A DNA stretch of 63,086 bases from Candidatus Hydrogenedens sp. (GTDB lineage Bacteria; Hydrogenedentota; Hydrogenedentia; Hydrogenedentales; Hydrogenedentaceae), in NCBI GenBank assembly GCA_049968235.1, contig JBMFRC010000016.1, forward strand, positions 1-63,086, written 5' to 3'. Positions 26,550 through 61,984 of the stretch are shown here, in pieces. Position 1 is the stretch's first letter, and every line of letters begins with the position of its first letter. Under the pieces are notes generated by a model, which saw only the letters and a list, made by a program, of their open reading frames with translations, did not search any database and was not told where the DNA came from. Position numbers and translations under genes: made by a program.

Positions 26550-28259
26550 ATGAATACTCACATTAAAGAAGTTATACAAAATGTTTTAGAAAATAAGTGG
26601 AGATATAATTTACAAAATATTTCCATACGAAATACTGTTCCTATAGATATTACGGACAAATTAATTGCCTTTACACTTTGTGTAGTATTTATTGCTTTTG
26701 CTTTATGGATAGGCATTGTTAGTTCCCGACCTTTTCAATGGCCCTTTAATTGGGATACCCTTCGCGATATAGGAATTGCACAAACCTTCCTTGATAAGAC
26801 TTACCCTGAAGACCCTATATTAAAAGGAGAAATTAATTGGTATAACCCCCTAACGGGATTTGTAATTGCCCTATCCAGCAAAATACTCGATACATCATTA
26901 CCCAAAACATGTATGCAAATAGGTCCCTTTTTGCAGTTATTGCTACCTATTGCAGTGATGTTATTAGCATGGAATTGTTGGGGACCATGGGCAGGTTTCT
27001 TATCTATAACATACTTTATTTTTGCAAGACACCCTTATCTACCCGAGTGGATGTATTCCTCTTATTCCCCCTGGCTAATAGCACCCCAGTGGGGGAAAAC
27101 ATTTTTTTTCTTAACAATTCTTATGTTTATTCTTTATGCTGAGAAAAAGAAACACCTATTTTCTATTTTATGTGGAGTGTTTTTAGGGCTGGGATTTCTC
27201 ACACACACGGCAGTTTTAATAGAAGCGGGATTATTTATTGCTTTGTATTCCCTTGTTAAGATTATCCAGTTTTCTCGTTCTTCCCTGAGACAGGAACTTA
27301 TACAATACCTCAAAGGAATAGGTATCCTTCTGGGGATAGCACTTTTTTTGAGCAGTCCTTATTGGTTACCCATTTTTATTCGTTATCGATTCATTATTCG
27401 CAATCCCTATCCATCTCTTTATGTAACCTCAGCCCTTGAATTGAAAAATCTTCCAACAACTTTGCTAAAAAGTGCTAATGGTTTTACTGTGATAGGTGTT
27501 ATCTCTATTTTATTTTTCTTTATCCACAGAAAAAAACAAGAATTATGGTGGTTGAGGATATGGACAGTAGTGGTCCTTCTTTTAGTATTTCAACAGATAA
27601 TATCTCAGTGTTTATACTATTATGGCTTTGCATTTCCAGCATTTTTTCCTCCCCATCACACCTTTATGTCCGTTCATGCGTTAATAGGATTCTGGTTTGT
27701 TTACGGCTCTCTTCAGGTAGCAGGGGTGATTGTTCATTTTTTCCAACGCAGAAACATTCATTACTGGCTTCAGAAGGGAATATACCTTGTTGTTTTATCT
27801 TTGATATTCCTTATGGGTGTGACTACTTTGGTAAGACCTATTCCACCACTACACGAAATCTATCGCGGAATGGAAGTAAATAAATTGGCACATGATGTTG
27901 CTCGATTTGATAACGTTTATAAATGGATATTAAATAATACAACACCTCAGGACTTATTTTTATGTGATGAGGTTACAGGAATCTGGACAGTTATGCCTGC
28001 AGGTAGAAAACTGGTTTATACCATGATGTTTTACATGAACCCTTATTGTGAAATAGGCTACCGTATAGGATTCCTTAATTATATATGGAATCCACTCCGA
28101 GAACAGCGGTATAGTGATTTTCTTGCTCTCTGTCAACAAAAAAAACTGAACTATATTCTTTTACGGCATACGGATGAAAATAAACCTCTTCTGGATAAAA
28201 TGAAAAAAATACATAAATGTTATGAAGACCATCAGGTTGTTATATACAAAATTCCATAA
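26550..28259 (+). CDS. Polytopic integral membrane protein (>=10 predicted transmembrane segments); possible GT-C-type glycosyltransferase
   Basis: 569 aa, dominated by hydrophobic helices, with a roughly 150-aa hydrophilic C-terminal domain. Convergent with the GT-C-like operon. Confidence 0.5.
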   Translation: MNTHIKEVIQNVLENKWRYNLQNISIRNTVPIDITDKLIAFTLCVVFIAFALWIGIVSSRPFQWPFNWDTLRDIGIAQTFLDKTYPEDPILKGEINWYNPLTGFVIALSSKILDTSLPKTCMQIGPFLQLLLPIAVMLLAWNCWGPWAGFLSITYFIFARHPYLPEWMYSSYSPWLIAPQWGKTFFFLTILMFILYAEKKKHLFSILCGVFLGLGFLTHTAVLIEAGLFIALYSLVKIIQFSRSSLRQELIQYLKGIGILLGIALFLSSPYWLPIFIRYRFIIRNPYPSLYVTSALELKNLPTTLLKSANGFTVIGVISILFFFIHRKKQELWWLRIWTVVVLLLVFQQIISQCLYYYGFAFPAFFPPHHTFMSVHALIGFWFVYGSLQVAGVIVHFFQRRNIHYWLQKGIYLVVLSLIFLMGVTTLVRPIPPLHEIYRGMEVNKLAHDVARFDNVYKWILNNTTPQDLFLCDEVTGIWTVMPAGRKLVYTMMFYMNPYCEIGYRIGFLNYIWNPLREQRYSDFLALCQQKKLNYILLRHTDENKPLLDKMKKIHKCYEDHQVVIYKIP

Positions 28260-28261
28260 TT

Positions 28262-30520
28262 TTATTTTAGTAAAGAATAGTCAATATCTTTTTTTAAATG
28301 TTCTGTTGGGATTTGTAAATCTTCCGCTCTATGAAAAGCCTTTTCCACCGCATTTTTATCGCAGGTAATTGCAGAAGGGTGATAAATAAAGTGCCAGCCA
28401 ATGGGTAAAACAGGCTGGAGATGAAATAGCAAGGACCAGCACCAATTAGCAGTTGTAACATTGGATAATCTATCGCAGGTTTGTCCCCAGAACCACCAGA
28501 ATAATGGTTCTTTGTTACATTCTTTAATCAATTGTGCGAAATAGGAGAATGCTCCTTCGTAATCCTGTTCTGCAAAACATTTTACGCCATTCCAGAAAAG
28601 GACCGATAGGTCTTCTTGTGATGTGGCATAATATAGTAATATGCATTCTTTCTCAAAATTTACTTTTGTTGAAAACCCTTCATAAAATTGAACTATCTGA
28701 TTTGGGTTCTGTTCCCATGCGTGCTTTAATAAGTACTCTGCTTGGTTATATTTTTTTAATCGTGCCAACTCCATAGCACACCGAACAAAATGGAAACCTG
28801 TGCGGTCATGATCATAGCGGTGTCTCTTATAAAATATACCTGATGCAAGGCTTGCTTCACTAAATAATTTTCTCGTTAATTTTTTTATGTCTAAATTTAT
28901 TGTGAATATGTTTTCACATTTCAATTTTTGTAAAGAGGAAATTTGATATAGATATATTTTCTGTTCGCCGGGTAAGGTATAAACAAAGAAGTAAAATCCA
29001 TATTGTTTCAATACCGAAGGAAATGTATTTAAGCCTGTTCCATATACATCCGGGATAACAATCCATATCTTCGTTTTTTCTATCTGGTTTGTACCTAAAC
29101 TATTAAAATAAACCTGTGTTAGATTTGCCAATCCCTCCTCAGTATATGCATCTGTTACAGGCAAGGAAATATCTTCATTATTGAGCCTAAAAATGGGCAT
29201 CCAGAAGGGGTCGCGAATTATTACCAAGTCGTGCATCCCTTGATTTTGGGAAATAATTCTCCCTACTCCTTTCCAGTCCATTCGCCATGAACTTTGCGAC
29301 ATAATTCCTATTGGATAAAGAAGCACAACTATAAGAAGGACAATAGCAAACCATTTAATCCATTTTCTTGATTGTGAAAGGAAATAGGCAATCCCAATGA
29401 AATGTAATGGAATGAGAAAGACAATATACCTCGTTGTAAAAACAGGTGGTCCAAGTCGTGCAAGGCAGAACAGTAAAAAAGGAGGGATAGTAAATAAGAC
29501 AAGGAAGAAAAAAGAAATGTGAAATGTATTATCTCTTCGTATCCACCTACGAATAGTTTCATATACCAAACCCAACAAACCTAACAAAGAAAAAAGAACA
29601 AGAGCCAACTCAAAACCTTTTTGAGAGTAATGTAAAATAGACCCAATAATGGAGGACGAATACTGCCACGGATGTGATATACCTATCGGGCAAATTCCCC
29701 CTTTCCCAACAATATTAAGAACAAAAGGAAATGATAATAACTCCCAGAATGAAGGTTTAAGATAATATCGGTGTAATTCACCGGGTTGAGGTGGAATGGT
29801 TAAAATCCAACTGAACCATGGGATTAAAAATATGGAATGTATAATAATTAGAGCAATCGATTTTCTTATATATCTTTTTCCCTTATATGGCACAGCAATT
29901 AAAAGTAAGAACTCTGTAGCCCATATAATTACCCCGATATGGTGTGTCCATAACAACATTTGATTGACAAGTATCCAGAATATAAGGGTTCGATTATTGG
30001 ACATGTTATCCATCACCTTCATGAACAAGAAAAACGAACCCCAGACCAGAAAAAGGTATGCTATATACATCCGTGCTTCCTGTCCAATAAAGATAAGAGC
30101 AGGGGAGAGAGTTATCCCTATGCAGACGAGAGTTTTCGTACCGGCAGGTAACTTACCTTGCCGTTCCAGTTTGTTTGTAATAACCCAGAACATAAGATAG
30201 AAACCTATCCAGATACAGATACTTAACAAACGAATAGAAACAATCCCTGTTCCTGAGTATCTTCCCCAGAGGTATTGACATAAAGGAAACAAAATGCCAC
30301 CGTAAGGATATGTATTCCTTTGTTCTTTTATGAAATGAAATACGGAATGGAGATTTAGATTGGCTATGCATGCATATTCTTCCAGCGAAATGGACTCTTG
30401 AGAAATTCTATATAGACGGAGTAATATCCCGACAATTAGAAAAAAAAGAAAGAAAAAAACGTCATAGTTGATGTTTTGTTTTGAATTTAACAGTATTTTG
30501 TTCTTACTTAGAAGAATCAT
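28262..30520 (-). CDS. GT-C fold membrane glycosyltransferase (ArnT/PMT-like, GT39/GT83-type) with a C-terminal soluble TPR-like domain
   Basis: 752 aa. Transmembrane helix 1 is followed by the acidic loop motif SLEEYACI, at the position of the DE/DExxY motif of ArnT/PMT enzymes. About 11 transmembrane helices precede a 350-aa soluble domain. Confidence 0.55.
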   Translation of the reverse strand: MILLSKNKILLNSKQNINYDVFFFLFFLIVGILLRLYRISQESISLEEYACIANLNLHSVFHFIKEQRNTYPYGGILFPLCQYLWGRYSGTGIVSIRLLSICIWIGFYLMFWVITNKLERQGKLPAGTKTLVCIGITLSPALIFIGQEARMYIAYLFLVWGSFFLFMKVMDNMSNNRTLIFWILVNQMLLWTHHIGVIIWATEFLLLIAVPYKGKRYIRKSIALIIIHSIFLIPWFSWILTIPPQPGELHRYYLKPSFWELLSFPFVLNIVGKGGICPIGISHPWQYSSSIIGSILHYSQKGFELALVLFSLLGLLGLVYETIRRWIRRDNTFHISFFFLVLFTIPPFLLFCLARLGPPVFTTRYIVFLIPLHFIGIAYFLSQSRKWIKWFAIVLLIVVLLYPIGIMSQSSWRMDWKGVGRIISQNQGMHDLVIIRDPFWMPIFRLNNEDISLPVTDAYTEEGLANLTQVYFNSLGTNQIEKTKIWIVIPDVYGTGLNTFPSVLKQYGFYFFVYTLPGEQKIYLYQISSLQKLKCENIFTINLDIKKLTRKLFSEASLASGIFYKRHRYDHDRTGFHFVRCAMELARLKKYNQAEYLLKHAWEQNPNQIVQFYEGFSTKVNFEKECILLYYATSQEDLSVLFWNGVKCFAEQDYEGAFSYFAQLIKECNKEPLFWWFWGQTCDRLSNVTTANWCWSLLFHLQPVLPIGWHFIYHPSAITCDKNAVEKAFHRAEDLQIPTEHLKKDIDYSLLK

Positions 30521-32675
30521 ACAATTTGTATCGCTCTATATTTTCTCGAACATTTCTGAAATCCCATGCATATCTCCAATGCTTGTTATAACCTTTGATA
30601 GAATTATCCTGGGGTACAGCCAGAGTTATTAAAAAAGGTTCCATAGATGGGTTCTCTGCCCGATAAAGCCCACAAAATGAAGTTTCATATCCCTTCGGTA
30701 TCTCAATCCCTTTCCACGCCCCACGAACCCATATAATAGGTTCCTGATTATTAAAGACAATCTCATTTCTTGGTTTGATAGTAGATGCAGAGTAAACTAA
30801 GAAATAGATACTTATCCGATGAGGTATGTTTCCCTTAATATACCAATGGAGGAGTGGGTTTAAGGGTTCTGAAAAATCTACTGCGTAATATGTATTATCA
30901 TATCTGGAATAAATAGAAAAGTCTTTTGCTAATTCAAAATCAGCACGTAGAAACTCAAAAGGGGTTTCCATAATAGGCAGTTCGGATACTTTTTCGAAAC
31001 GGGGTAAGGTTTTTGAAGGTTGGAATAAGATGCTCGTTCCAGTATCAATTTGATTGAGATTTACCTTCTCCCAATTCAATTCGCGATAGGAGGTGATAAG
31101 TTTTAATAACTGATGTTTCTGCCATAAAATTAAAGTTGCATATAGTAATGAACAGGAACAGACTACAATTATCAGAACAATAACACCGTTACGCAGTCCG
31201 ATTAAAATACTTTTTCCGGACAATTCTTTTCGATACATACCGTAAAGGGTTGTAAATAATTCATACATAAACAGAATGACAATTCCGTATAAAATAGGGG
31301 TCAGGTGAACTACATGCCGATATTCAAACAAGATGGAGGGATAACCTAATAGATAACCTAAAACTCCGGAGATTAGTATCCCTTTCCAGATATTTTTCAC
31401 ACTCACAATAAAAATTAATCCCAATAATATCCACGGTCCGATATAAGCAAGAGGAATATCCCAATAATAAAAATGGTCAGTGAAAAAAAAGGACCAGGAT
31501 GGTCGGTTAAATTCCGGATGGTTTTGCTTTTGTTCCCTTGTAAAGTTATAAAGTGTCGAGAAACAATTACTACAAGCGGATAGGATGCGACCCCATAAGT
31601 CCGCAGGAAAATGCCATGCAACAGACCTGAAATAAGCCCTACCTGCAGTCCCGTATGCTGGTGATAAATAGTTATCAAAGGGTTCTTCAAAACCTGTTCG
31701 TCGTGCAAAGGACGCAATTGTTGAATGGACAAGCATATCATTGGGTTCATAAACAAGCCGATAGGAAGAATTACCACCCATTAAGGTTTGTTCGATGGTG
31801 CTTGCAAGACCCTGCACCAATGAATGGCTGGATACCGCCCCTTTATCCTCAGCAATTGCTAACAATATAGGATAGCCTGATGCAAGAAAAGATAGCAGAT
31901 AAAGAACGATACAACCTATACTCGCATGAATTTTCTTATAATATAAAAATTTAGCACCAATGATACCTATAAACACCAGCCCTAAAAAGAATAAAATAAG
32001 TACATCCTGGCGAAATCCCAATCCAATGCCTATTACGAAACCTAATACAGATGAAACAATTGTAGTTCTCCATACATACTTATCCGAAAAATAGAACATG
32101 CTTGCTGAAATTGCAAGGAATAGCATAAAAAAAGTAGTTTTTGAATAATCTCGGATAGATGGCAGGAGAAAAAGAAGAGAGGGGGAATTCATGACCAGGC
32201 AAGTTGTTATAAAAGCAGGTACGCTCCCTCCAAATATATACAAAGTAATGTAAACCGCTATTACACTAAGAACGAAAACTATCCCGGCATATATTTTTAA
32301 TACATCCCAGTTTATTCCAAACCATTGCCATAATATACCTATTGTATATATTAGATAGCGATGTGTCCTTACAAAACGGCTGTTATCCCATGTGCCCCAA
32401 TCTTTGGGTAGGTCAGAAAATTGCAGAGAATTTGTTTTCTGTTCCAGAAACAATCGAATGTTTTTTGGATAAGGTGCTTTAGGTGTCGTGAATCCCTGTC
32501 CACAAGCGATAGATATGGCATTTACCAGCCATTCCTGTTCGAACCGATAGTCCCGTCCAATCATTTTGACACGGATTGTTAAATGTTCATAAACAATCCA
32601 TGAAGAGAAAACAACAATGAGTAAAAAAAGGATTAAATCAATAATAATTCTCTTCATTGTATCGTTTTTGTTCAC
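30504..32675 (-). CDS. Polytopic membrane protein, GT-C-like, of unknown specificity
   Basis: 723 aa with more than 12 hydrophobic helices and a C-terminal soluble domain. It overlaps both neighbours (17 nt and 4 nt), indicating translational coupling. Confidence 0.5.
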   Translation of the reverse strand: MNKNDTMKRIIIDLILFLLIVVFSSWIVYEHLTIRVKMIGRDYRFEQEWLVNAISIACGQGFTTPKAPYPKNIRLFLEQKTNSLQFSDLPKDWGTWDNSRFVRTHRYLIYTIGILWQWFGINWDVLKIYAGIVFVLSVIAVYITLYIFGGSVPAFITTCLVMNSPSLLFLLPSIRDYSKTTFFMLFLAISASMFYFSDKYVWRTTIVSSVLGFVIGIGLGFRQDVLILFFLGLVFIGIIGAKFLYYKKIHASIGCIVLYLLSFLASGYPILLAIAEDKGAVSSHSLVQGLASTIEQTLMGGNSSYRLVYEPNDMLVHSTIASFARRTGFEEPFDNYLSPAYGTAGRAYFRSVAWHFPADLWGRILSACSNCFSTLYNFTREQKQNHPEFNRPSWSFFFTDHFYYWDIPLAYIGPWILLGLIFIVSVKNIWKGILISGVLGYLLGYPSILFEYRHVVHLTPILYGIVILFMYELFTTLYGMYRKELSGKSILIGLRNGVIVLIIVVCSCSLLYATLILWQKHQLLKLITSYRELNWEKVNLNQIDTGTSILFQPSKTLPRFEKVSELPIMETPFEFLRADFELAKDFSIYSRYDNTYYAVDFSEPLNPLLHWYIKGNIPHRISIYFLVYSASTIKPRNEIVFNNQEPIIWVRGAWKGIEIPKGYETSFCGLYRAENPSMEPFLITLAVPQDNSIKGYNKHWRYAWDFRNVRENIERYKLYDSSK

Positions 32676-34249
32676 TTATTATCCGGGTTATCACGGGTGT
32701 TATTGTTATTGTATTTTAACATAATGTTCAAACTATCCTGTGCCAGTCCGTCATCCGGGTAATATCGTAAACACTCCTGATACATCTCAATACTTTTTTT
32801 AATCTCTCCTCTGTTGGCAAATACATTCCCTGACAACCGCATAGCAATTCGGGAATAGGGGTGTTTTTTTAGAAATTCCTGAGCCACTTCATTGGCTTGA
32901 GCAATGTTTTTTGTTTTTAATAACCAATCAATCAATTGCATATTAATCTTTTCATCATTTTGATTAAGTTTATATGCATACATATATCCTTCAACTATCT
33001 TTTCTTCTATTTTATCTCCGAGTTCTTCCGTTAATTGTTTTTCTTTTTCAGAAATAATTTCTTGGGAGATGGGGTCAATAATCACTGCCTTCTGCATCTG
33101 TAACTGTAACAATTCTGTCGCATGATTCCATCCTAAATAATGAGAACAATCTTCCATACTTATCAAAGGAATATCTCCTTTTTCCGTTATAATATTGCGT
33201 TTTTTCAGAATAGTTGAAATTGCCTTAAACCACTCGCACGCGAGCAGATAATTCCCCTCAAATGTGAAGTGAATATTATCACAGAAATACTCATAACCTG
33301 GAATACCCTGCGGACTCTTCTTTGCAAGTATTCCATCCACATCGACCAGATGCACATTTTTTGAAAATATTTTGCATGTATCCACAATACATTTATTCAT
33401 TTCTGTCGGTTCAAAACGGATGGTATCCCATTCCTCTTTTTTTTTGCCAAATTTCCTGTTATAGGATAAAGTTCCTACAATTACATCTGCATGAGCATAC
33501 ATTCCTGCATAAATCATATCCCTTAGGTTATTTTTATATAGTTTTAGGGTTCTTTTCCCCTGTCCTTGTTTTGGAAGAAATGGGAATAAGTCCTTTGGTT
33601 TTTGTTCACGCCACTTTGTACTCTGACTTTGTTCAAATAATTGCACCATTCGAAGATGTTTTAAATAAGTATGTAACCGAATCATAGTATTCGTTCTTAA
33701 AAAAGGAACTGAATACAGTAAGGAATGTTCCCCATAAGGACCAATTGTTTCGTTATTCCCCATGTAAATGATAAAGAAATCCGGCGATAGTTTCGAGCAT
33801 GCCTTTGCCAGGAAATAAAGAACATGGGAATTGATACCCGGGCACGATACATTATATATTTCCCAATTTTTCTCGGGGATAGAGTACTTTAATATAACTT
33901 CTAACTGTCTTACCGAAGATTCCAGTCCATACATTGCAGATTCCCCAAAAACAAATATTCGAAGGGTATCTTTATTTTTTTGTTCTGGGACATAAAAATC
34001 AAGATGGTCCCAATTTACAAAATCGTGCAGTGGAATATTAAAAAATTGTTGATAAAAACTGCGATTAGGGACAGATAGGGTTAGTGTGCTGAAATGTTTT
34101 TGTATAAGAGGTTGTCGGTCTTCGCCCTTGTTTAAGAATCGTAAAGAACATTCAAATAAAAAAAGAATCAATAAAGGTAATAGCCATAGCACGAGTTGAA
34201 TAAAGAGGAATAGTACCTTTCTTCGGAACAGTTTTTGATGTGTCTTCAT
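32672..34249 (-). CDS. SGNH/GDSL-type hydrolase domain protein with an N-terminal transmembrane anchor and C-terminal TPR repeats
   Basis: N-terminal transmembrane segment. Block-I-like RIFVFGESAMYG. C-terminal TPR-like region (YQECLRYYPDDGLAQDSLNIML). Confidence 0.5.
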   Translation of the reverse strand: MKTHQKLFRRKVLFLFIQLVLWLLPLLILFLFECSLRFLNKGEDRQPLIQKHFSTLTLSVPNRSFYQQFFNIPLHDFVNWDHLDFYVPEQKNKDTLRIFVFGESAMYGLESSVRQLEVILKYSIPEKNWEIYNVSCPGINSHVLYFLAKACSKLSPDFFIIYMGNNETIGPYGEHSLLYSVPFLRTNTMIRLHTYLKHLRMVQLFEQSQSTKWREQKPKDLFPFLPKQGQGKRTLKLYKNNLRDMIYAGMYAHADVIVGTLSYNRKFGKKKEEWDTIRFEPTEMNKCIVDTCKIFSKNVHLVDVDGILAKKSPQGIPGYEYFCDNIHFTFEGNYLLACEWFKAISTILKKRNIITEKGDIPLISMEDCSHYLGWNHATELLQLQMQKAVIIDPISQEIISEKEKQLTEELGDKIEEKIVEGYMYAYKLNQNDEKINMQLIDWLLKTKNIAQANEVAQEFLKKHPYSRIAMRLSGNVFANRGEIKKSIEMYQECLRYYPDDGLAQDSLNIMLKYNNNNTRDNPDNK

Positions 34250-34291: not shown

Positions 34292-35296
34292 TTATATATC
34301 TCGCTTCCATTTTTCACGAACGATAAACGCAGGAATACGGTATAAAGCGAGGAAAGAACGCATCGCAAATTCACCGATAATAGAGAGTATTGCTACAATA
34401 ATCAGCAACGAAAAAACGATAACATTCAAAATTAGCCCGGGGGTAATCTCCTTCATAATGCTATAATCCAGGAAGAAGGCAGAAAGGATACGGAGAAAGA
34501 ACAAAAATCCGAAGATAACACATAATATCGCCATCCATTGGAACAAACGTGGAGACATGCGTACCAGATTGTCCATGTTGTATTGCCAGAGACGCCAGAA
34601 GGTATATCCAGATTTCCCATAAGGTCGTGGAAAATGTTGAACGGGCACCTCCACACATCGTCCCGCACGCGAAACCACATCCGCAGTACGGAAAATATTA
34701 AAAGGACCGTATTCAAAAGCACGAACAAGGTCTGCTCGATAAATTTTATAAGTACAGCCGAAATCGGTCAGCGGGATACCGGAAGATTTCCGCATAATCC
34801 AATTAGCAACCTTTGATGGAATGCGTCGGAGAATACTATCCTGTCGTTGTATGCGACACCCGCTTACAACATCAAAACCCTCATCATATTTCTCTATTAA
34901 CTTAGGGACATCTTCAGGTGCTAATTGTAAATCACTATCTATAAGTATAATTGCTTTACCGCGTGCATCCATAATACCTGCGGTAACGCCTGCCTGTTGT
35001 CCTGAATTGCGATATAAATTAATTACTGAAAAAACCCGTTCATCCTCCTTGTAAATTTCTTTTAATATTTCCCATGTTCTGTCGGTACTCCCATCATTTA
35101 CAAATATTATTTCATATGACCTTCCTGTTTTTTCTAAGGTATCTTTTAGACGGCGATGAAATTCACGGATACTTCGTTCTTCATAATAACAACTGATAAC
35201 TATAGAAAACTCTATATCTGAATGCTTTGTATCTATAGCCATCCCTTTATACCTCATTCCCTGATATAGATAGTTCATTTCTCTTGGCAATGGCAA
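34292..35296 (-). CDS. GT2 polyprenyl-phosphate sugar synthase (ArnC/DPM1/GtrB-like)
   Basis: FSIVISCYYEE...EIIFVNDGSTDRT (GT-A DxD region) plus two C-terminal transmembrane helices. The real start may be the internal Met near 35245, which would abut the upstream stop. Confidence 0.8.
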   Translation of the reverse strand: MPLPREMNYLYQGMRYKGMAIDTKHSDIEFSIVISCYYEERSIREFHRRLKDTLEKTGRSYEIIFVNDGSTDRTWEILKEIYKEDERVFSVINLYRNSGQQAGVTAGIMDARGKAIILIDSDLQLAPEDVPKLIEKYDEGFDVVSGCRIQRQDSILRRIPSKVANWIMRKSSGIPLTDFGCTYKIYRADLVRAFEYGPFNIFRTADVVSRAGRCVEVPVQHFPRPYGKSGYTFWRLWQYNMDNLVRMSPRLFQWMAILCVIFGFLFFLRILSAFFLDYSIMKEITPGLILNVIVFSLLIIVAILSIIGEFAMRSFLALYRIPAFIVREKWKRDI

Positions 35297-36029
35297 AAAT
35301 AGACCCGCACATGTCTGGATATTCCAAACCTAAACGATATAATCCATCAATTTGAGATGGTCCCAAAATGCCGGAACGATATAATTGGTCTAATTGGAAA
35401 TCTGCCAATATTTTTAGAAAGATACCCCCTTGATGAATTATTTTAAATCCTTCATGTTCCAGGTCACGGTTTAACCGAACACGGTCGTACATCCTTCGAT
35501 GCCCGTGCTGAATGTCATGTGGTGTAAAATCGTCCAATTCTTCTAATATACGCATATGTCGGGCTAATTGACGGGACAAAGCACGTGAATTAGGAACCAC
35601 GACATAAAGAATGCCATCGGGTAATAGCAATCTTCGAACTCTATTTAACAAAACGGAAATATCCAGGACATGCTCCAATACATATATAGCAAAGATAACA
35701 TCATATTGTCTACCTGTCTTTTCAAGGGTTAATTCTTCGAAAAGAGAGGAAATAAAGCGGACATTGGGAAGATTCTTCTTTTTCCCTTCCCAGATAAAAG
35801 ATGCATTTCCCTCTGCCACATCTAACTCGAACAGCAAAGGAGCTAGCATCTCTGTATCAACACCTTCCGCATATCCTAGTTGAAGTCCTACCATCTTCTG
35901 ATGCAGATAGGGTTGAATGGTCCGCACAATAAGTTCCCGTATAACACGGTCTTGCATGGACCCTTTTGTATATGTCTTTCCTACATGTTCAATAAATTCA
36001 TGTTCATCCATACCATAAACTCCAATCAA
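35247..36029 (-). CDS. Class I SAM-dependent methyltransferase
   Basis: Methyltransferase motif-I region (VGLQLGYAEG) and a post-I acidic region (DVIFAIYVLEHV). Confidence 0.7.
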   Translation of the reverse strand: MIGVYGMDEHEFIEHVGKTYTKGSMQDRVIRELIVRTIQPYLHQKMVGLQLGYAEGVDTEMLAPLLFELDVAEGNASFIWEGKKKNLPNVRFISSLFEELTLEKTGRQYDVIFAIYVLEHVLDISVLLNRVRRLLLPDGILYVVVPNSRALSRQLARHMRILEELDDFTPHDIQHGHRRMYDRVRLNRDLEHEGFKIIHQGGIFLKILADFQLDQLYRSGILGPSQIDGLYRLGLEYPDMCGSIFAIAKRNELSISGNEV

Positions 36030-37362
36030 TCAAACTTTCTATCATATCTACGCTGAACACAGGTATTTTTAATGTCTCATACACTTCCTTGCGTTCCTGA
36101 TAGGAGTCGTCAATGAATATAGGTTTCTTCGATTGAATATAGGACGATTTTTTTTCTCCTTCGTGCAATTCAATAAATGTATTTATTAGTTTATCCAATC
36201 CCAATGAATGTAATGAAATTTCATATTCCCCTTTATGTCGTGTAAGCACAGTTACAGGAATGCCGGCTCCCTTACATTGTATCAGAAATAAAACTACAGG
36301 ATAGTTTAACTTTCCATGAATAACCAGACAATCATCATAATCAATATAAACATGGTCAAAAAAATAGGGTTTCTTTGTATGGGATTGCAATAATGGAGAA
36401 ATGAAAGCTTTGGGAAAATAATTAAATAAACATCTCTGCATTTCCTGTGGGAAAGGCTGTTCCGTAATCTCCACAGGTATACGCAGGGCATCGTAAACAG
36501 TTAGTAACGGTAAATTAACCCCACGATTGCGAAAAAGACCCATTCCTCCACTAACCCGTGGGGCAATTTCAAGGAGAACCAACTCACCATTAGCCCTCTC
36601 TTTCATCTGAAAAAACCAGGCACCTCGAAGTTTTAGATGCTTATTAATTACCTCTGCAAAGCGTATAAATCTATAGCGATTGGTTACCTGCGTATCAACA
36701 CTAATTCCATGAGATATGCGAATACGCTCCCGTGCCCCTGAAAAGATTAATTCCCCTACATAGTTTGTAAAACAATCAATGGTATATTCCTTCCCGGGTA
36801 GATATTCTAAAATGAGTAAATTTTTTTTATTTTCCAGTATTCCTTCCAGTTCCTTCTGGCTTTCTACACGAAAAACCCCTTTTGACCCTTCACCTATCTT
36901 TGGTTTTAAAAATACAGGAAAATAAGGGATTTGATGGGGCTGTTTAAATACTTTCGGAATAGATAATATCCCATCGAAATATTTATAAGTTTTCTCTTTA
37001 TCCCGACAAATCCGACAGGTCTTCACCGGGGAGATTAAAACTTTGCAAGGTAAATCGTGCTGATGCTCCGCCAAATATAATCCTGCTGTATCATGAGCGG
37101 GGAAAATAAAATCAATTTTTAATTTTTCCAATAGCGAACAGAATCTTTTTAGGAAGGACCTTTCGTTTACAAAGGGTAGTCCGGTGTAGTAATGTTTGAA
37201 CAGCATACCCCCCGGATCATTTTCGAGGCTGGTGGCACCAAATAATTCTATATGCTGAGAATAGGACAAAGAACGAAATATTTCAAGTCCTATTTCTGTC
37301 CCTCCCGGAAAAATCATTACACGGACAGGCTTTTTTAATTTTGAAGTGTCCCTTCTTTTCAT
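36004..37362 (-). CDS. ATP-grasp ligase domain fused to a C-terminal HAD-like phosphatase domain
   Basis: N-terminal pre-ATP-grasp and ATP-grasp pattern (VRVMIFPGGTEIGLEIFRSL...KPKIGEGSKGV...LILEYLPGKEYTIDCF). The C-terminal ~110 aa carry HAD-like motifs (YIDYDDCLV...IFIDDS). Confidence 0.6.
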   Translation of the reverse strand: MKRRDTSKLKKPVRVMIFPGGTEIGLEIFRSLSYSQHIELFGATSLENDPGGMLFKHYYTGLPFVNERSFLKRFCSLLEKLKIDFIFPAHDTAGLYLAEHQHDLPCKVLISPVKTCRICRDKEKTYKYFDGILSIPKVFKQPHQIPYFPVFLKPKIGEGSKGVFRVESQKELEGILENKKNLLILEYLPGKEYTIDCFTNYVGELIFSGARERIRISHGISVDTQVTNRYRFIRFAEVINKHLKLRGAWFFQMKERANGELVLLEIAPRVSGGMGLFRNRGVNLPLLTVYDALRIPVEITEQPFPQEMQRCLFNYFPKAFISPLLQSHTKKPYFFDHVYIDYDDCLVIHGKLNYPVVLFLIQCKGAGIPVTVLTRHKGEYEISLHSLGLDKLINTFIELHEGEKKSSYIQSKKPIFIDDSYQERKEVYETLKIPVFSVDMIESLIDWSLWYG

Positions 37363-38522
37363 GTCTCAGCCCATTCAGGAAAAATTTTTATCATCTCACA
37401 AATTTTTATAACATATTCATGGGGTAAATTCCCATACATAGGCAAACATAAAACTCGTTCTGCTGTTTCATCTGCGTTAGGTGTCGGTATTTGAGGAATA
37501 TCGACTCTTTTTGCATAATAGGAGATGCGATTGCATAAGGGGTAAAAATATTTTCGCACAATCACATTACATTGGCGAAGTCTATTGAACAATTCATCCC
37601 GTGAAATACCATACTTCATTTTATCTACCTCAATAGGGAAGTAAGCATAATTCCAATCACAGTCTTTGGGTTCTGTAACCGTTCGAATCCCGGGGCAAGC
37701 ACTTAACTTTTCACAATATAATTTGTATAAATCTTTCCTTTTCCTTATTTCTTCTGCTACTTTTGGCAATGATGCAAGACCAAAAGCAGATGAAAGTTCG
37801 TTCATTTTTCCATTAATTCCAACGCCGACGACAGTTTCTTCATCAGCAATTCCGAAATTTTTCATTAAATATGCCATTCGTGCCTGTTCCGGTTTATGAC
37901 AGATCAAAGCTCCACCTTCTGCTGTTGTAAATAGTTTAGTTGCATGAAAACTCAACACGGATAAGTCCCCGTAATCACATAAAGAACGTCCTCGATACCA
38001 ACATCCAAAGGTATGTGCGGAATCGTATATTATCGGTATAGAATATTTTCTTGATAATTTAGAGAAAGCGTCAACATCGCAAGGTATTCCATAAACATGC
38101 ACCGGTAAAATGGCTTTTGTGTTCGGAGTTATATATCTCTCTACCATTTGTGGGTCCAAATTATATCCACCCGACTGAATATCGCAAAACACAGGTTTCA
38201 ATCCGTTCCAACAAATAATATGAGGTGTAGCCGGGAAAGTAAAGGGAGTTGTGATAACCTCTCCTTCTTTTATATCCAGTATCTTTAATGCTATCAGTAG
38301 GGCTATAGTCCCGTTGCAAAATAGAACCAATTCCGATACATTTAGAAATTTTTTTAGTTCAGATGTAAACTGCTGATGCCAGTAGGCTTCATTTGTAAGC
38401 CAGAGCGTCTCCCAGATTTTTGAAAGAAAAGAACTATACTCTACCTCTGCAGGCATCATGGGTCGTGTTACATATACTGTTTCCGGAAATCGTTCTTGCT
38501 CGATATATTCATTTAATTCCAT
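37359..38522 (-). CDS. DegT/DnrJ/EryC1/StrS-family PLP-dependent sugar aminotransferase (ArnB-like)
   Basis: SFHATKLFTTAEGGALI contains the PLP-binding Lys. I prefer the start at MELNEY (38522). The ORF-track start at 38645 would overlap the divergent gene. Confidence 0.85.
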   Translation of the reverse strand: MELNEYIEQERFPETVYVTRPMMPAEVEYSSFLSKIWETLWLTNEAYWHQQFTSELKKFLNVSELVLFCNGTIALLIALKILDIKEGEVITTPFTFPATPHIICWNGLKPVFCDIQSGGYNLDPQMVERYITPNTKAILPVHVYGIPCDVDAFSKLSRKYSIPIIYDSAHTFGCWYRGRSLCDYGDLSVLSFHATKLFTTAEGGALICHKPEQARMAYLMKNFGIADEETVVGVGINGKMNELSSAFGLASLPKVAEEIRKRKDLYKLYCEKLSACPGIRTVTEPKDCDWNYAYFPIEVDKMKYGISRDELFNRLRQCNVIVRKYFYPLCNRISYYAKRVDIPQIPTPNADETAERVLCLPMYGNLPHEYVIKICEMIKIFPEWAET

Positions 38523-38615
38523 ATTTTCGATAACCTCATTTCGAAGATGACAACTAAAACCCGTTACAATAATACAATAAATTTTATTTAGTTTAACATA
38601 ATCGGTGTCATTATT

Positions 38616-39665
38616 ATGAATAAACAAAAATATTCGGAAATACAATCAAAAGATTATCCTTACAAAAATAAGGGTATTCATGTTCTTGTAAACATAGGCT
38701 TATTTCTTGCAAGTCTTCTTCTTTGTTTTACTATTGCAGAAATATTTTTTGCCTATTGGGAAATGAAACTTCTCAAATCTATGGGGGTGTTTATACCCGT
38801 TGACCCGCGTTACGATGGTTCTGCATGGGAAGTAGACCCCATGCAGGCAAACCGTTTTACATGGCAATCGGATGGAAACAGTATTGTTCACATTCGCTCT
38901 AAAAATAAAAAACTTATGTATGAACTGCGACCCAATTCGGTAATTTCCGGAATGATAAAAATTAATTCGGATGGTTTTCGTGACCGTGAATTTTCTCGCG
39001 AGAAGCCACATCATGTGTTTCGAATCGCAGTAGTTGGAGATTCTGTTACTTTTGGCTGGAGACAAAGATTGGAAGATACCTATCCCAAAAAATTAGAACA
39101 ACTCCTTCAAGCAAATAACAAAACAAACACACAAATTGAAGTGCTAAATTTTGGAATAGGTGGTTATAATGCAGAGCAGGAGGTTGAACTTATAAAAACA
39201 AAGGTGCTTAATTATAATCCTGACCTTATACTTATCGGTTTTTGTCCGAACGATGGGCAAATCGGTTTCGATGGTGGGCTCTGGTGGCATTTTTTTCGCG
39301 GACCTTCCCGAACAATTTCTTTTCTCAAACTCCTGTATTTATACAATAAGTATAAGCATGATGACCTTGCATTGTTAAAAAATCCTTATTCGGAATTGGC
39401 AGAACTATCAAGGCAGAAAAATATTCCTGTTTGTGTATGCATTTTCCCGATGTTGCAGGGAGATAAACTCTGGTGTCCACCCCGTTTTATTCCTTTATTA
39501 GATGAATTAAAAATTCCTTATATTAATCTTATTCCGGAATTTGAAAAGAAAAATGTACCGGAACTTTTATTAGACGTAGTGCATTTTACGGTAGCAGGGC
39601 ATTATTTTGTTGCAGAACAGATATACCATTATCTTACGGAAAACAAAATAATCTCCTTACAATGA
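38616..39665 (+). CDS. SGNH/GDSL hydrolase family protein with an N-terminal transmembrane anchor
   Basis: N-terminal transmembrane helix. Block I RIAVVGDSVTFGW and block III LILIGFCPND. Confidence 0.6.
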   Translation: MNKQKYSEIQSKDYPYKNKGIHVLVNIGLFLASLLLCFTIAEIFFAYWEMKLLKSMGVFIPVDPRYDGSAWEVDPMQANRFTWQSDGNSIVHIRSKNKKLMYELRPNSVISGMIKINSDGFRDREFSREKPHHVFRIAVVGDSVTFGWRQRLEDTYPKKLEQLLQANNKTNTQIEVLNFGIGGYNAEQEVELIKTKVLNYNPDLILIGFCPNDGQIGFDGGLWWHFFRGPSRTISFLKLLYLYNKYKHDDLALLKNPYSELAELSRQKNIPVCVCIFPMLQGDKLWCPPRFIPLLDELKIPYINLIPEFEKKNVPELLLDVVHFTVAGHYFVAEQIYHYLTENKIISLQ

Positions 39666-39744
39666 GAAATGTAACAAGTCCGGCAAATCAGACGAGGCTG
39701 GCGAGTCTAACAGGTCTGATAAGTCCGACAGGTCCAACTCCGGT

Positions 39745-41214
39745 TTACGCATTTCCCTTAACTTTATGGATAATACTTGTCGTTGATTGTCCTTCTACAC
39801 CGGGAATAAGTGCAATTCGACCACCATAACTCTCTACAAATCGCCGCTCAGGCTGAACCAATGTATCTATCGTATAATCCCCTCCTTTAGCGTATACATC
39901 TGGTTTTAACTGTTTAATTATTGGGAGAGGAGATTTCTCATCAAATAGAACAATGTAATCCACGCACTCAAGAGCGGACAACACCAATGCACGATTGTGT
40001 TCATTAATGACCGGTCTACCCTCTCCTTTTATTTGACGCACTGAGCGGTCACTGTTCAAACCTACAATCAATACATCTCCTTCATTCTTTGCTCGCATGA
40101 GATAGGTAATGTGACCCACATGCAGGATATCAAAACAGCCATTTGTCCATACAATCTTCTTGTTTTGTTCTTTCAATTGCTGAACAATCTTTTTTAATTG
40201 CGGCAATGTCTTCAATTTGAAAGGACCACCAGCACTTAAAAGAGCCTGCTCGACCTCTTCTCGGGAAACAGTAACTACTCCATGCTGGGCTACCGCTACA
40301 CCCGCAGATGTGTTTCCCAATACTGCACATTCATAAAGATTTGCTCCTGCAACTAAGGCTAAAGCAACTGTTGCGGTTACTGTATCGCCGGCTCCTGTTA
40401 CATCAATAACCTGAACGGGAGCAATTGGAACATCTTCAATTTTGCCGTTTTCATAAAAAATAGTTATGCCATCGGGTCCACGCGTTATCATTGCATTTTT
40501 TGCCGATTTAAGTAAAAATTTTCCCGCTTTTTTCAGTGTTTCATAATCTACAACATGGATGCCTGTGGCAATACCTGCTTCTTTATCGTTCGGAAGTATT
40601 ACATCAAAACCCTTAAAAATATTAGCCCGTGCACGGGAATCCGCAACGGTAATTAAATTATACTTTTTGGCACATTCTGTTAAGGCGGACAATACCTCAG
40701 GCGTTATAACAGAGGATACCTGGTCTCCCACCATAATTACATCCACCTTTTTGGCTACTTTATATATATTTTTGATGATTTGTTCTTCTACTTTACCCGA
40801 AATAGGTTTAGGACGTGGGGTATCTGTGCGGAGAACCTCTTGTGTGGGAATATTATGTCCACCTGCCCGAAGTTTCCCATATGTGTTTGTAGGTCGTGTC
40901 GGGTCAACCACAAGATAATCAATGTTTACATTTCGTTTCTGAAATTCATTCCTTAAAATTTCTGCATTTGAGTCCGCACCCACGACGCCCAACATATAGA
41001 CCATAGCACCAAGGGCAGAAGCATTGCAGGCAGCATTTCCTGCGGCTCCAGGATTATATCGGCGTTCTAATACCTCCAATACAGGAATCGGGGCTTCCAG
41101 ACTTACTTCTGTAACCTTGCCATAAACATTCTCATCTAAGTAAATATCTCCAATAGCAAGAACTCGCACTTTATCAAATTTTGATAATAGAGAAAAAAGC
41201 CGTTTTGTATCCAT
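39745..41214 (-). CDS. hldE: Bifunctional D-beta-D-heptose 7-phosphate kinase / D-beta-D-heptose 1-phosphate adenylyltransferase
   Basis: N-terminal PfkB/ribokinase-like domain (VLAIGDIYLDENVYGKVTEVSLEAPIPVLEV). C-terminal cytidylyltransferase-like domain (IVWTNGCFDILHVGHITYL...VGLNSD...RPVINEHNRALVLSALECVDYIVLF...KGGDY) matches RfaE domain II. Confidence 0.9.
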   Translation of the reverse strand: MDTKRLFSLLSKFDKVRVLAIGDIYLDENVYGKVTEVSLEAPIPVLEVLERRYNPGAAGNAACNASALGAMVYMLGVVGADSNAEILRNEFQKRNVNIDYLVVDPTRPTNTYGKLRAGGHNIPTQEVLRTDTPRPKPISGKVEEQIIKNIYKVAKKVDVIMVGDQVSSVITPEVLSALTECAKKYNLITVADSRARANIFKGFDVILPNDKEAGIATGIHVVDYETLKKAGKFLLKSAKNAMITRGPDGITIFYENGKIEDVPIAPVQVIDVTGAGDTVTATVALALVAGANLYECAVLGNTSAGVAVAQHGVVTVSREEVEQALLSAGGPFKLKTLPQLKKIVQQLKEQNKKIVWTNGCFDILHVGHITYLMRAKNEGDVLIVGLNSDRSVRQIKGEGRPVINEHNRALVLSALECVDYIVLFDEKSPLPIIKQLKPDVYAKGGDYTIDTLVQPERRFVESYGGRIALIPGVEGQSTTSIIHKVKGNA

Positions 41215-53421: not shown

Positions 53422-54288
53422 TTATGTTACGGTATAATTCATCAATTCTTCTATAAATGCATGTTTATCAAAATAAAGGTTAATAATATCAATTAACAGT
53501 CTGTTATTTAAACCTGCCATGGTCCAAACATCTTCTCGTAAAGGATGTAATTCATGTTCATAAGCAGAAAGCCCTGATGCTCGAACAATATAATCTGCAA
53601 CACATAATGAAGCACAAATGAGTTGCTGTCGTTCATTTTTAGCGTCCCAGGGTTCATGATGATATTGGACAGCGGTGCATAAATCCTCCGATAACTTCCA
53701 CTCCTCTGCAATTTTTCCGCCTACCTGAGCATGGTCAACGCCGATAATTTGTTGTTCTATCGCTATCCATGAGCCATAACCACCTTCCTTCGCACAATGA
53801 CAGACTCCTGCCCAATGTTTAGGTAAAAACTCCAATAAAAACATTTTACCTATATCATGAAGCAAACCGAAAACAAAACCCGTATCTCCTTTTGTATATA
53901 CTTCTTTCAATGGTCCCATAGATACTACAGAATCCATTGCAACCCCTACTGCAACACTATGCATCACCATATTCTGTGCCATCTTTCCCATTTGAGAGAA
54001 AACGGTCGCAGTAATTACTAAATTGCGAATTACTTTTGTTCCCAGTAAAACAATTGCATGTTCGATAGAGGTAACTTTTTGTCCTAAACCGTAATATGCG
54101 GAATTAACCAATCTTAGTAATTTGAATGAGATGGAAGGGTCTAATGAAATGGCATGGGACAAATCTGCAAGTTTTGTGTTTGGGTTCTCAATAATTGCCA
54201 AAATGTTTTGAACAGATGCAGGAAGACTTGGAAGAGTTACTGTTTCCGATAAAAGGTTTTCAACTGTGTATTTTGTTAACTCTTCCAT
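53422..54288 (-). CDS. HDOD domain protein
   Basis: LPSLPASVQNILAIIENPNTKLADLSHAISLDPSISFKLLRLVNSAYYGL...LLGTKVIRNLV is the HDOD consensus. HD-like residues (HDIGK) are retained. Confidence 0.8.
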   Translation of the reverse strand: MEELTKYTVENLLSETVTLPSLPASVQNILAIIENPNTKLADLSHAISLDPSISFKLLRLVNSAYYGLGQKVTSIEHAIVLLGTKVIRNLVITATVFSQMGKMAQNMVMHSVAVGVAMDSVVSMGPLKEVYTKGDTGFVFGLLHDIGKMFLLEFLPKHWAGVCHCAKEGGYGSWIAIEQQIIGVDHAQVGGKIAEEWKLSEDLCTAVQYHHEPWDAKNERQQLICASLCVADYIVRASGLSAYEHELHPLREDVWTMAGLNNRLLIDIINLYFDKHAFIEELMNYTVT

Positions 54289-60526: not shown

Positions 60527-60712
60527 AAATTTGTCAAACCCGATACCACATAAATTTCAATTTATCACTATAAACATTTTATTTTGATTTTTATTTCGAA
60601 AATATATAAAATAAAAGAATAAAGAAAGGCTTACATGGGTTTATAATACCAATTATAGATAACTATAATATCTCATCTTACATATTATTTTGTTAAAACA
60701 AAGGATAAAAAA

Positions 60713-61984
60713 ATGCGTTGGGAAAAGAAAAAAATAGATGGAAGTAAATCTAAAATTATGAGATTTACAAAAACAGAAGCCTCTACTATCCGTTCTCCAG
60801 AACAATCTTCCGGAGCGAAAACTACCGACAACACTTTAAAAATACAGTCTCTTAAAGAATTACTCCAGCAAATAGGACATATTCCCAAAGAAAAACTCAA
60901 TGAAGCCTTACTTGAATCACAAAAAACAGGAAAATTTGTTGGAGAAATACTTGAAGAAAAAGGACTTATAAGTAATGATACCATCCTTTCATTACTTATT
61001 AAGCAATGTAAAACCCCTCTGGTTAGTCTCCTGAGTTATTCAATAGATAGAGAAATTCTAAAAATAATACCTCATGAAATATGCGATAAATATAAGATTC
61101 TTCCGATTGACAAACTAGGAAATACTATTACTCTCGCAATGGTTAACCCTATGGATATTGATGCAATTGAGGTAGCAAAACAATATTGTGGTAATCATCA
61201 AATCAGACCTATATTATGCTCTTACAAAGAATTTGAACGTGTGAAAACAAGATATACACCCTCTCAAAAACAGGAAGATAAAACTATCAATCAACAACCC
61301 CCTCCTGAAAAACCTATAACATCAACACCACTTCCAATTCTAGAAGAAGTAAAAGATGAAACCATCCCTGAAGCCATAATCATAGATACGGATTCTCTTG
61401 ACCCGGAAACGGAGGAGCAGATACAAAAAGAAAATGCTCTTCTTCATACTGTATTTACGGAACCTATCTCTGAAAATACAACCTTAAAATTTTTAGAAAG
61501 TCATAAAGACGACTTATCTATTCACGACCTTGCCACATCCATGATAAGTAGTCTTCAAGGTTCTTACGAGTTACTTATCCGGAAAATAAAACTTTTTCAT
61601 GGATTGACTACGGAAGAGATTGCAAATATTTTTGCTTATTGCAAACAGATTCAATTAGATGCGGGAGAAATTTTATTTAATAAAGGGGATATTGGAAAGA
61701 GTTTATATGTTCTAATAAGTGGTGAAATAGAAATTTTTGATGAAGAAAAACATATATGCTTTCTATCACCAGGCGAAATGTTGGGTGAGATGTCAGTCAT
61801 AACTAAAAACAAAAGAAGTGCAAGTGCCCGTGCTGTTGAAGAATCAGTCCTTCTGGATTTAGATTTAAACATTATATACCGCTTTATTCCATCTATCGTT
61901 GCTATCAAACTACTTACAAATATTATCTTTACTCTTAGCGAACGGCTAACTTCAATTACTTCAAAAATTCAACAACCATCCTAA
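60713..61984 (+). CDS. Signalling protein: N-terminal T2SSE_N / MshEN-like domain and a C-terminal cyclic-nucleotide-binding (CAP_ED) domain, with no ATPase domain
   Basis: VGEILEEKGLISNDTILSLLIKQ fits the MshEN motif (R)LGxxL(V/I)xxG(I/F)(L/V)x4Lx3LxxQ. A second T2SSE_N half (ILPIDKLGNTITLAMVNP) follows. The C-terminus (LFHGLTTEEIANIFAYCKQIQLDAGEILFNKGDIGKSLYVLISGEIEI...LSPGEMLGEMSVI...RSASARA) is a cNMP-binding fold with a G-E-x-x-G...R-S/T-A phosphate-binding cassette. Confidence 0.7.
   Translation: MRWEKKKIDGSKSKIMRFTKTEASTIRSPEQSSGAKTTDNTLKIQSLKELLQQIGHIPKEKLNEALLESQKTGKFVGEILEEKGLISNDTILSLLIKQCKTPLVSLLSYSIDREILKIIPHEICDKYKILPIDKLGNTITLAMVNPMDIDAIEVAKQYCGNHQIRPILCSYKEFERVKTRYTPSQKQEDKTINQQPPPEKPITSTPLPILEEVKDETIPEAIIIDTDSLDPETEEQIQKENALLHTVFTEPISENTTLKFLESHKDDLSIHDLATSMISSLQGSYELLIRKIKLFHGLTTEEIANIFAYCKQIQLDAGEILFNKGDIGKSLYVLISGEIEIFDEEKHICFLSPGEMLGEMSVITKNKRSASARAVEESVLLDLDLNIIYRFIPSIVAIKLLTNIIFTLSERLTSITSKIQQPS

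Follow-up and report, generated by a model that had tools for sequence, protein, structure and literature searches.

Published work treats the MshEN domain chiefly as a c-di-GMP receptor carried by pilus and secretion ATPases and by glycosyltransferases. Binding of c-di-GMP by this domain requires two tandem 24-residue motifs (PMC5013675), each of which, according to Wang et al., binds one GMP half of the ligand, and the MshE substitutions G11L and G40I abolish the binding (PMC12002112, PMC5013675). Work on PilF widened the residues accepted at position 1 to R/K/L and revealed that a hydrophobic residue at this position raises the affinity, with Leu being tolerated at position 1 of motif II in PilF GSPII-B (PMC11731258). 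PilF GSPII-A and the N-domain of XpsE, both of MshEN type, do not bind c-di-GMP. When Ser occupied position 1 in PilF GSPII-A constructs, binding was lost completely; the change of Gly3 to Ala caused an approximately 10-fold loss, and the non-Gln residues at position 24 needed reversion for the non-binding domain to be resurrected (PMC12002112). The only combination of MshEN with a cNMP-binding domain in Suppl. Table 4 of Wang et al. 2016 is that of DP2226, and their domain-architecture table contains neither an ATPase-less MshEN-cNMP protein nor an MshEN-DnaA-like protein. Our literature search found no paper on the two-domain MshEN-cNMP architecture, the nearest listed architecture being MshEN-T2SSE-cNMPbind, and pili and second messengers were not mentioned in the Hydrogenedentota papers that it returned. 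Each domain is well known by itself; the ATPase-less combination of the two is an uncharacterised variant.

A gene encoding this combination is present in Candidatus Hydrogenedens sp., an uncultured member of the Hydrogenedentota, within the 63-kb stretch of DNA that was analysed as a whole (hereafter, the window; Table 1). The first-pass annotation had described the product as an MshEN domain fused to a CAP/CRP-type cNMP-binding (CNB) domain, with no ATPase and no DNA-binding helix-turn-helix (HTH), and this architecture is real. Pfam scans matched MshEN (PF05157) at residues 101–187 with 59.9 bits (E = 2.5e-16; cut-off 23.1) and cNMP_binding (PF00027) at residues 314–391 with 66.6 bits (E = 2e-18; cut-off 27.5). 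The same scans gave no match to the T2SSE ATPase core (PF00437) anywhere in the 423 residues and none to an HTH DNA-binding domain, and the chain ends at residue 423, where the HTH of CRP would begin. Among the NCBIfam models, the PilB equivalog TIGR02538 was matched over model positions 2–149 of 564 only, and the CRP model over positions 12–137 of 214 only; therefore, the protein includes no secretion ATPase and no DNA-binding domain. The window protein falls outside the CRP/FNR proteins, the GspE/PilB/MshE ATPases, and the Pycsar effectors. P0001, a partial protein that is 100% identical over the 86% of the query that it covers, is named [quoted passage not shown] by NCBI. A promoter and terminator scan of the locus gave nothing above the shuffled-sequence controls, and promoter-like sites were no commoner than in shuffled sequence.

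Table 1. Features of the MshEN-cNMP_binding locus, in nucleotide positions of the window.
Feature	Position	Strand	Remarks
HDOD/HD gene	53422-54288		~6 kb upstream of the MshEN-cNMP gene
Intergenic region 5' of the gene	60527..60712	+	186 bp
Promoter-like site (single)	60640-60669	+	In the 186-bp intergenic region
Shine-Dalgarno-like AAAGGA	60700-60705	+	7 nt upstream of ATG
MshEN-cNMP_binding ORF	60713..61984	+	ATG start, complete, 423 aa
N-terminal peptide MRWEKKK	60713..60733	+	M1, W3, E4, K5, K6 invariant across orthologues
Variable disordered leader, aa 8-43	60734..60841	+	pLDDT <50
MshEN_N motif I, SLKELLQQIGHIPKEKLNEALLES, aa 46-69	60848..60919	+	Degenerate: S46 at position 1, K48 at position 3, S69 at position 24
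MshEN_N motif II, FVGEILEEKGLISNDTILSLLIKQ, aa 75-98	60935..61006	+	Position 1 invariably Phe; otherwise canonical
MshEN_C, T2SSE_N1-like alpha/beta subdomain, aa 100-185	61010..61267	+	Contains the Pfam MshEN match
Linker, aa 186-268	61268..61516	+	Acidic, Pro/Thr-rich, largely disordered, variable between orthologues
CRP-type cNMP-binding module, aa 269-420	61517..61972	+	N-terminal helix, beta-roll, long C-helix
Phosphate-binding cassette GEMLGEMSVITKNKRSASARA, aa 354-374	61772..61834	+	G358-E359 and R368-S369-A370
C-helix, aa 394-420	61892..61972	+	a/d heptad I398, L401, I405, L408, L412, I415

Both domains were folded in two AlphaFold2 runs of the protein, which used alignments of 17 and 39 sequences. 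The predicted MshEN domain consists of a four-helix N-subdomain and an alpha/beta C-subdomain, and the predicted CNB domain consists of an eight-stranded beta-roll between flanking helices; with the 39-sequence alignment, the pLDDT was ~90 in the beta-roll and 86–93 in MshEN_C. The pTM rose from 0.38 with 17 sequences to 0.61 with 39 sequences, and this rise with the deeper alignment hints at some defined packing between the MshEN and CNB domains. Residues 1–39 and most of residues 186–268 were predicted to be disordered. Two short motifs in the linker, IPEA (residues 218–221) and HTVFTEPI (residues 245–252), are conserved in the 17-orthologue alignment. The MshEN_C region carries a subfamily signature composed of C99, P102, C124, D133, T140, P146, and C169.

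The window protein has 17 full-length orthologues (52–84% identity), every one of which includes both domains. When 1.8 billion cluster representatives were searched exhaustively with a profile and local domain HMMs were then applied, ~40 additional clusters at 50% identity showed this two-domain architecture, and about 45 species had full-length homologues in a scan of the GTDB species genomes. The hosts are essentially all labelled Hydrogenedentota, except for several MAGs with placeholder labels ("uncultured bacterium", "uncultured Nitrospirales"). The MshEN-cNMP family is phylum-wide and, by these labels, essentially confined to Hydrogenedentota. Some Hydrogenedentota genomes carry two copies of the gene.

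In the N-terminal helix of the CNB module, S280, Y285, and R290 are kept in 92–97% of the family. The G-E...R-[ST]-A pattern of PF00027 is present in the phosphate-binding cassette, in which G358-E359 and R368-S369-A370 align with G71-E72 and R82-S83-A84 of E. coli CRP; HMM alignments also place the cassette on PKG, PKA, and CAP. In CRP, PKA, and PKG, the G-E and R-S-A residues are those that touch the cyclic phosphate and the ribose. G358 is kept in 55, E359 in 54, R368 in 54, S/T369 in 50, and A370 in 48 of the 59 family members, which are only ~30% identical overall. Judged by this conservation, the cNMP pocket is under strong constraint, and the cyclic-nucleotide binding predicted in the first-pass annotation is supported by an intact cassette. 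The ligand is predicted to be cAMP or cGMP, between which the sequence does not distinguish. The degenerate motif I of the MshEN domain (described below) would be in keeping with a protein in which both sensor domains are ligand-dead and serve as a purely structural scaffold. However, conservation reaches about 92% at the residues in contact with the cyclic phosphate and ribose, in sequences of such low overall identity, which argues for selection on ligand binding, and we consider a ligand-dead scaffold very unlikely.

The C-helix aligns with the dimerisation helix of CAP, and its N403 is kept in 57 of the 59 family members, the remaining two being gapped at this position. From the heptad pattern and the similarity to CAP, we read it as a CRP-like dimerisation helix. 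A transmembrane reading of the C-terminal segment (Kyte-Doolittle maximum 1.76, residues 391–409) was rejected, given the alignment of this segment with the C-helix of CAP, its a/d heptad, and its polar residues K399, T402, and N403.

We fixed the register of the two MshEN_N motifs by aligning them, with HMMs, to those of PilB and PilF. [quoted passage not shown] By contrast, motif I is degenerate, with S46-L47-K48 instead of (R/K/L)-L-G and S69 instead of Gln. In 17 of 17 orthologues, motif I has no R/K/L at position 1, and Gly3 and Gln24 are likewise missing; position 24 is Ser or Ala within the clade of the window protein. Against the NCBIfam c-di-GMP_motif model NF053729, the window protein scored 28.6 bits, under the cut-off of 38, as did its clade relatives P0015 (33.5 bits) and P0013 (17.8 bits), whereas the MshEN-AAA+ paralogues described below (54–67 bits) and distant family members with an RLG...Q motif I (49–66 bits) scored above it. 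P0064 passed at 49.7 bits although it has neither Arg1 nor Gly3; thus, the cut-off is permissive and does not amount to a functional test.

R/K/L at position 1 of motif I is found in 15% of the cNMP-fused family, compared with 83% of the MshEN-AAA+ (Walker-ATPase) paralogues, which share the same MshEN subfamily signature, and the corresponding figures for Gly at position 3 are 15% and 91%. Therefore, the c-di-GMP half-site has been specifically relaxed in the cNMP-fused family. In a crude neighbour-joining tree of the MshEN domains, calculated without support values, the few canonical-motif members lie near the base of one subclade, and the clade of the window protein forms a separate branch lacking Gly3 and Gln24. 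The tree suggests, as a hint, that a canonical motif I was ancestral and was lost in the branch of the window protein.

These results bear on the dual second-messenger receptor proposed in the first-pass annotation, a single polypeptide that would integrate c-di-GMP bound at MshEN_N with cAMP or cGMP bound at the CNB domain. The cNMP half of the proposal retains an intact site. For the c-di-GMP half, motif II departs from the consensus hardly at all, keeping G3, G10, Q24, and hydrophobic residues at 17 and 21; because hydrophobic residues at position 1 of PilF GSPII-B increase its affinity (PMC11731258), Phe75 could stack on guanine; and an association between MshEN and cNMP-binding domains was seen by Wang et al. 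in MshEN-T2SSE-cNMPbind. However, (i) motif I lacks its canonical positions 1, 3, and 24 in all 17 orthologues; (ii) equivalent published substitutions abolish or strongly cut binding (PMC5013675, PMC12002112); (iii) the NF053729 score is below the cut-off; and (iv) constraint on motif I is selectively weaker in the cNMP-fused family than in the paralogues. Dual messenger binding, which had been the claim of interest at this locus, is thereby weakened, and we regard it as unlikely for the window protein, in which it would have to operate through a non-canonical site. A dual mode is plausible, and likelier than in the window clade, for the ~15% of the family (P0068, P0086, P0093, P0103, and P0115) in which an RLG...Q or LLG...Q motif I accompanies an intact CNB domain; if these minority members bind both ligands, they would be better dual-receptor candidates than the window protein.

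The nearest non-orthologous MshEN relatives of the window protein (~40% identity) are fusions of MshEN to a DnaA/Hda-like AAA+ domain, in which the C-terminal DNA-binding domain of DnaA is missing. These AAA+ paralogues (for example, P0120 and HOK08774.1) differ from the window protein in their C-terminal module and in a motif I that is mostly canonical R/K-L-G, retention of motif I having been tabulated among the paralogues for the AAA+ set only. The same MshEN subtype heads PAS-GGDEF (L052) and FHA-GGDEF (L077) proteins in Hydrogenedentota. The AAA+, PAS-GGDEF, and FHA-GGDEF paralogues resemble the window protein in their MshEN domain and occur in the same genomes. All the classes tabulated (cNMP, Walker-ATPase, and "other") share Phe75, C99, P102, C124, D133, T140, P146, and C169, whereas Geobacter PilB has Tyr, Ala, and Ala at the positions of the three cysteines and lacks Phe75. 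Many of these MshEN-X paralogues also begin with M-x-x-W-x-K/R, a start similar to the MRWEKKK of the window protein. The variant L046 (1254 aa), which is also headed by this MshEN subtype, has a coiled coil of ~850 aa between its MshEN and CNB domains, and this long spacer fits a tether-and-anchor design.

A doubtful, tentatively advanced possibility is that the Hydrogenedentota-specific MshEN subtype serves as a common hub or oligomerisation module, perhaps dependent on a metal or on redox state, and brings the MshEN-X proteins (the cNMP sensor and the PAS-GGDEF, FHA-GGDEF, and DnaA/Hda-like AAA+ proteins) together in one complex. The features to which this hub would relate are the Phe at position 1 of motif II, the invariant Cys99/Cys124/Cys169 triad, and Asp133. 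Such a hub would join cAMP/cGMP to c-di-GMP signalling in trans, with no need for one protein to bind both ligands, and might include the output of a DnaA-like ATPase. The phylum-specific MshEN-X set with its Cys-triad signature is a more intriguing lead than dual binding.

The gene neighbourhood was compared by clustering the ORFs of 37 loci that carry full-length homologues. No neighbour was shared beyond the close clade among these loci; therefore, the gene has no operon partner. In close relatives, the order is PHP - DUF3810 - PurN - DUF2804 - MshEN-cNMP gene - GNAT, with PurN and DUF2804 present in 6 of the 37 loci; the best other neighbour cluster, an ABC ATPase ~3 kb away, is found in 9. 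The neighbours at homologous loci are housekeeping genes (for example, GlnRS, ABC transporters, and oxidoreductases). The upstream HDOD gene, which the first-pass annotation had offered as context, is not a conserved neighbour: it is syntenic in close relatives only, missing in L001, and unlinked outside the close clade, and the linkage was rejected. The annotation had also advised a search for pilus or T2SS operons that the protein might regulate. Pfam scans of about 45 ORFs turned up neither pilus nor T2SS nor cyclase genes in the window, and no pil or gsp genes lie within 10 kb of the 37 homologous loci.

This gene context speaks against a cNMP-controlled regulator of type IV pili or type II secretion, in which the MshEN domain would mimic the N-terminus of PilB or GspE and compete for the PilM/GspL/PilC platform; cAMP would then switch pilus assembly or secretion on or off. 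Such a role would agree with the N-terminal half having the N-domains of PilB, PilF, and MshE as its nearest relatives of solved structure, with the known binding of GspE N1 to GspL, and with cAMP control of pili, which is common. The motility predicted for Hydrogenedentota (PMC11406978) also counts for it. However, besides the lack of pil and gsp genes, the MshEN domain is closer to the non-pilus AAA+ and GGDEF paralogues (~40% identity) than to T2SSE-ATPase matches (26–33%), and its distinct signature (Cys triad and Phe75) is not found in Geobacter PilB. A pilus or secretion regulator is thus an unlikely reading. On a further rival reading, the protein would act in defence, as a Pycsar-like effector or one of another kind, and sense cCMP or cUMP from a phage-activated cyclase through its CNB domain. 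The PADLOC matches to Pycsar effectors are restricted to the generic CNB fold, CAP is a closer relative (33% versus 21% identity), no TIR or transmembrane effector domain is present, and the adjoining genes encode no cyclase (neighbours DUF2804, PurN, and GNAT). The gene is instead a syntenic core gene amid housekeeping genes and is found across the phylum, and a defence role is highly improbable.

The reading that we favour, with moderate confidence, is that the window protein is a soluble, probably homodimeric, CRP-like cAMP/cGMP receptor whose degenerate MshEN domain serves for docking or localisation. Because the c-di-GMP pocket of MshEN has decayed in its first half within this clade, the domain would most likely act in protein docking or localisation, without sensing a second ligand. 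GspL is bound by the non-binding N1 domain of GspE, and the docking role proposed here is modelled on this pair by analogy. The domain content and folds, the intact cNMP site, the degenerate motif I, the phylum restriction, the lack of operon partners, and the paralogue set are observed here, whereas we infer the ligand identity, the dimerisation, the docking role, and the partner. The predicted receptor would have no DNA-binding output, and its CNB domain would be joined to the N-terminal MshEN domain by a long flexible linker. Binding of cNMP at the beta-roll would re-pack the C-helix and the N-helix, and the re-packing would in turn alter how a partner is engaged by the tethered MshEN arms or by the conserved linker motifs. 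Since the same MshEN subtype is carried by AAA+, PAS-GGDEF, and FHA-GGDEF paralogues in the same genomes, the protein may bring cNMP input into an MshEN-centred signalling set. Two observations run against this receptor-and-docking reading: the intact motif II half-site with Phe75 might allow weak or non-canonical nucleotide binding, and the gene context points to no partner for docking.

MshEN is here the N-terminal module of a phylum-wide, ATPase-less protein with a conserved cAMP/cGMP pocket and a decayed c-di-GMP pocket, a natural case in which one sensor has apparently replaced another on a common scaffold. It calls for caution in annotating c-di-GMP receptors from a Pfam MshEN match or a single motif alone, and it points to an unexplored MshEN-centred set (cNMP, GGDEF, and DnaA-like AAA+) in a candidate phylum with no cultured model.

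Comparison with known systems places the window protein as follows. Compared with the N-domain of Vibrio cholerae MshE (PDB 5HTL; PF05157), (i) the window protein has no downstream T2SSE ATPase; (ii) its motif I lacks Arg1, Gly3, and Gln24; (iii) position 1 of its motif II is Phe instead of Arg; and (iv) its MshEN_C has the Cys triad C99, C124, and C169. T. thermophilus PilF GSPII-A (PDB 9G1W) and the Xanthomonas XpsE N-domain likewise combine the MshEN fold with one degenerate motif, in which the altered positions are Ser at 1, non-Gly at 3, and non-Gln at 24. The degenerate half is motif II in GSPII-A and motif I in the window protein, and the GSPII-A and XpsE domains sit on pilus or secretion ATPases, whereas the window MshEN sits on a cNMP sensor. 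In contrast to CRP/CAP (T. thermophilus CAP, 4EV0; E. coli CRP), the window protein has no HTH, its chain stopping at the hinge, and the partner of its CNB domain is an N-terminal MshEN domain connected through a disordered linker of ~85 aa. Desulfotalea psychrophila DP2226 (MshEN-T2SSE-cNMPbind) has an ATPase between the two domains, and the Hydrogenedentota family has none. Bdellovibrio Bd1971 (cNMP-EAL; PMC6717892) couples its cNMP-binding domain to an enzymatic EAL output, whereas the window protein has no enzyme domain.

The MshEN subtype of the MshEN-cNMP protein recurs with other C-terminal modules in paralogues. (i) In loci L044, L045, L057, L062, and L066, the MshEN domain is joined to a DnaA/Hda-like AAA+ ATPase. 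These fusions (proteins P0018–P0054, P0117, and P0120), which are named "DnaA/Hda family protein" by NCBI, retain the canonical c-di-GMP motif in their MshEN domain, and their AAA+ part lacks the C-terminal DNA-binding domain of DnaA. They occur in Hydrogenedentota and in some related candidate phyla, and the architecture has no entry in the domain-architecture table of MshEN proteins of Wang et al. 2016 (Suppl. Table 4). (ii) Two further architectures end in GGDEF, and a third carries a cNMP-binding domain behind a long coiled coil (Table). Single genomes hold several MshEN paralogues; OW818658.1, for example, carries those of loci L042, L058, and L080.

Full-length members of the MshEN-cNMP family are also found in several metagenome-assembled genomes (L021, L029, L038, L040, and L048) with record titles that read "uncultured Nitrospirales/Nitrospiraceae". 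Because all remaining full-length carriers bearing a phylum-level label are Hydrogenedentota, these titles are probably placeholders or mis-assigned.

The upstream HDOD gene, to which the first-pass annotation drew attention, showed no link to the MshEN-cNMP gene: its synteny is confined to close relatives, and it is missing from the lineage of homologue P0013 (locus L001). Elsewhere in the window, four successive large ORFs gave no Pfam match; they adjoin a sugar-modification gene cluster. A further gene encodes a four-part fusion that looks like a sulfur-trafficking protein of the CoA-disulfide/persulfide reductase type.

Features of the window and MshEN paralogues of the same subtype
Feature	Window position or loci	Strand	Size or residues
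Oxidoreductase (pyridine-nucleotide-disulfide)–Rhodanese–TusA–DsrE-like fusion	12054–14498		814 aa
Four ORFs without Pfam match	26550–34249	+; −	569 aa (+); 752, 723, 525 aa (−)
Sugar-modification cluster: GT2, methyltransferase, ATP-grasp, DegT aminotransferase, HldE-like kinase/cytidylyltransferase	34292–41214
Stand-alone HDOD/HD protein	53422–54288	−
Conserved extreme N-terminus	60713–60733		MRWEKKK
MshEN_C cysteine	61007–61009		C99
MshEN_C cysteine	61082–61084		C124
MshEN_C cysteine	61217–61219		C169
Conserved linker motif IPEA	61364–61375		aa 218–221
Conserved linker motif HTVFTEPI	61445–61468		aa 245–252
MshEN-PAS-GGDEF	L052, L055, L058		524 aa
MshEN-FHA-GGDEF	L076, L077, L080		about 490–520 aa
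MshEN–coiled coil (about 850 aa)–cNMP-binding domain	L046		1254 aa

Three short peptides of the MshEN-cNMP protein are conserved. The N-terminal peptide, which follows the family consensus x-x-x-W-x-K-x-K and has similar counterparts in many MshEN-AAA+ paralogues (MLSWRRD and MLGWRKD), may serve as a short motif for docking or membrane association. The other two lie in the disordered linker, the rest of which is variable, and are candidate linear interaction motifs.

Within MshEN_C, the alpha/beta C-subdomain of MshEN, the three cysteines together with D133 are invariant across the MshEN-cNMP family, are kept at about 90% in the paralogous MshEN-X proteins, and could form a putative metal or redox site. 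By contrast, Geobacter PilB has Tyr, Ala, and Ala at the positions of C99, C124, and C169, respectively.
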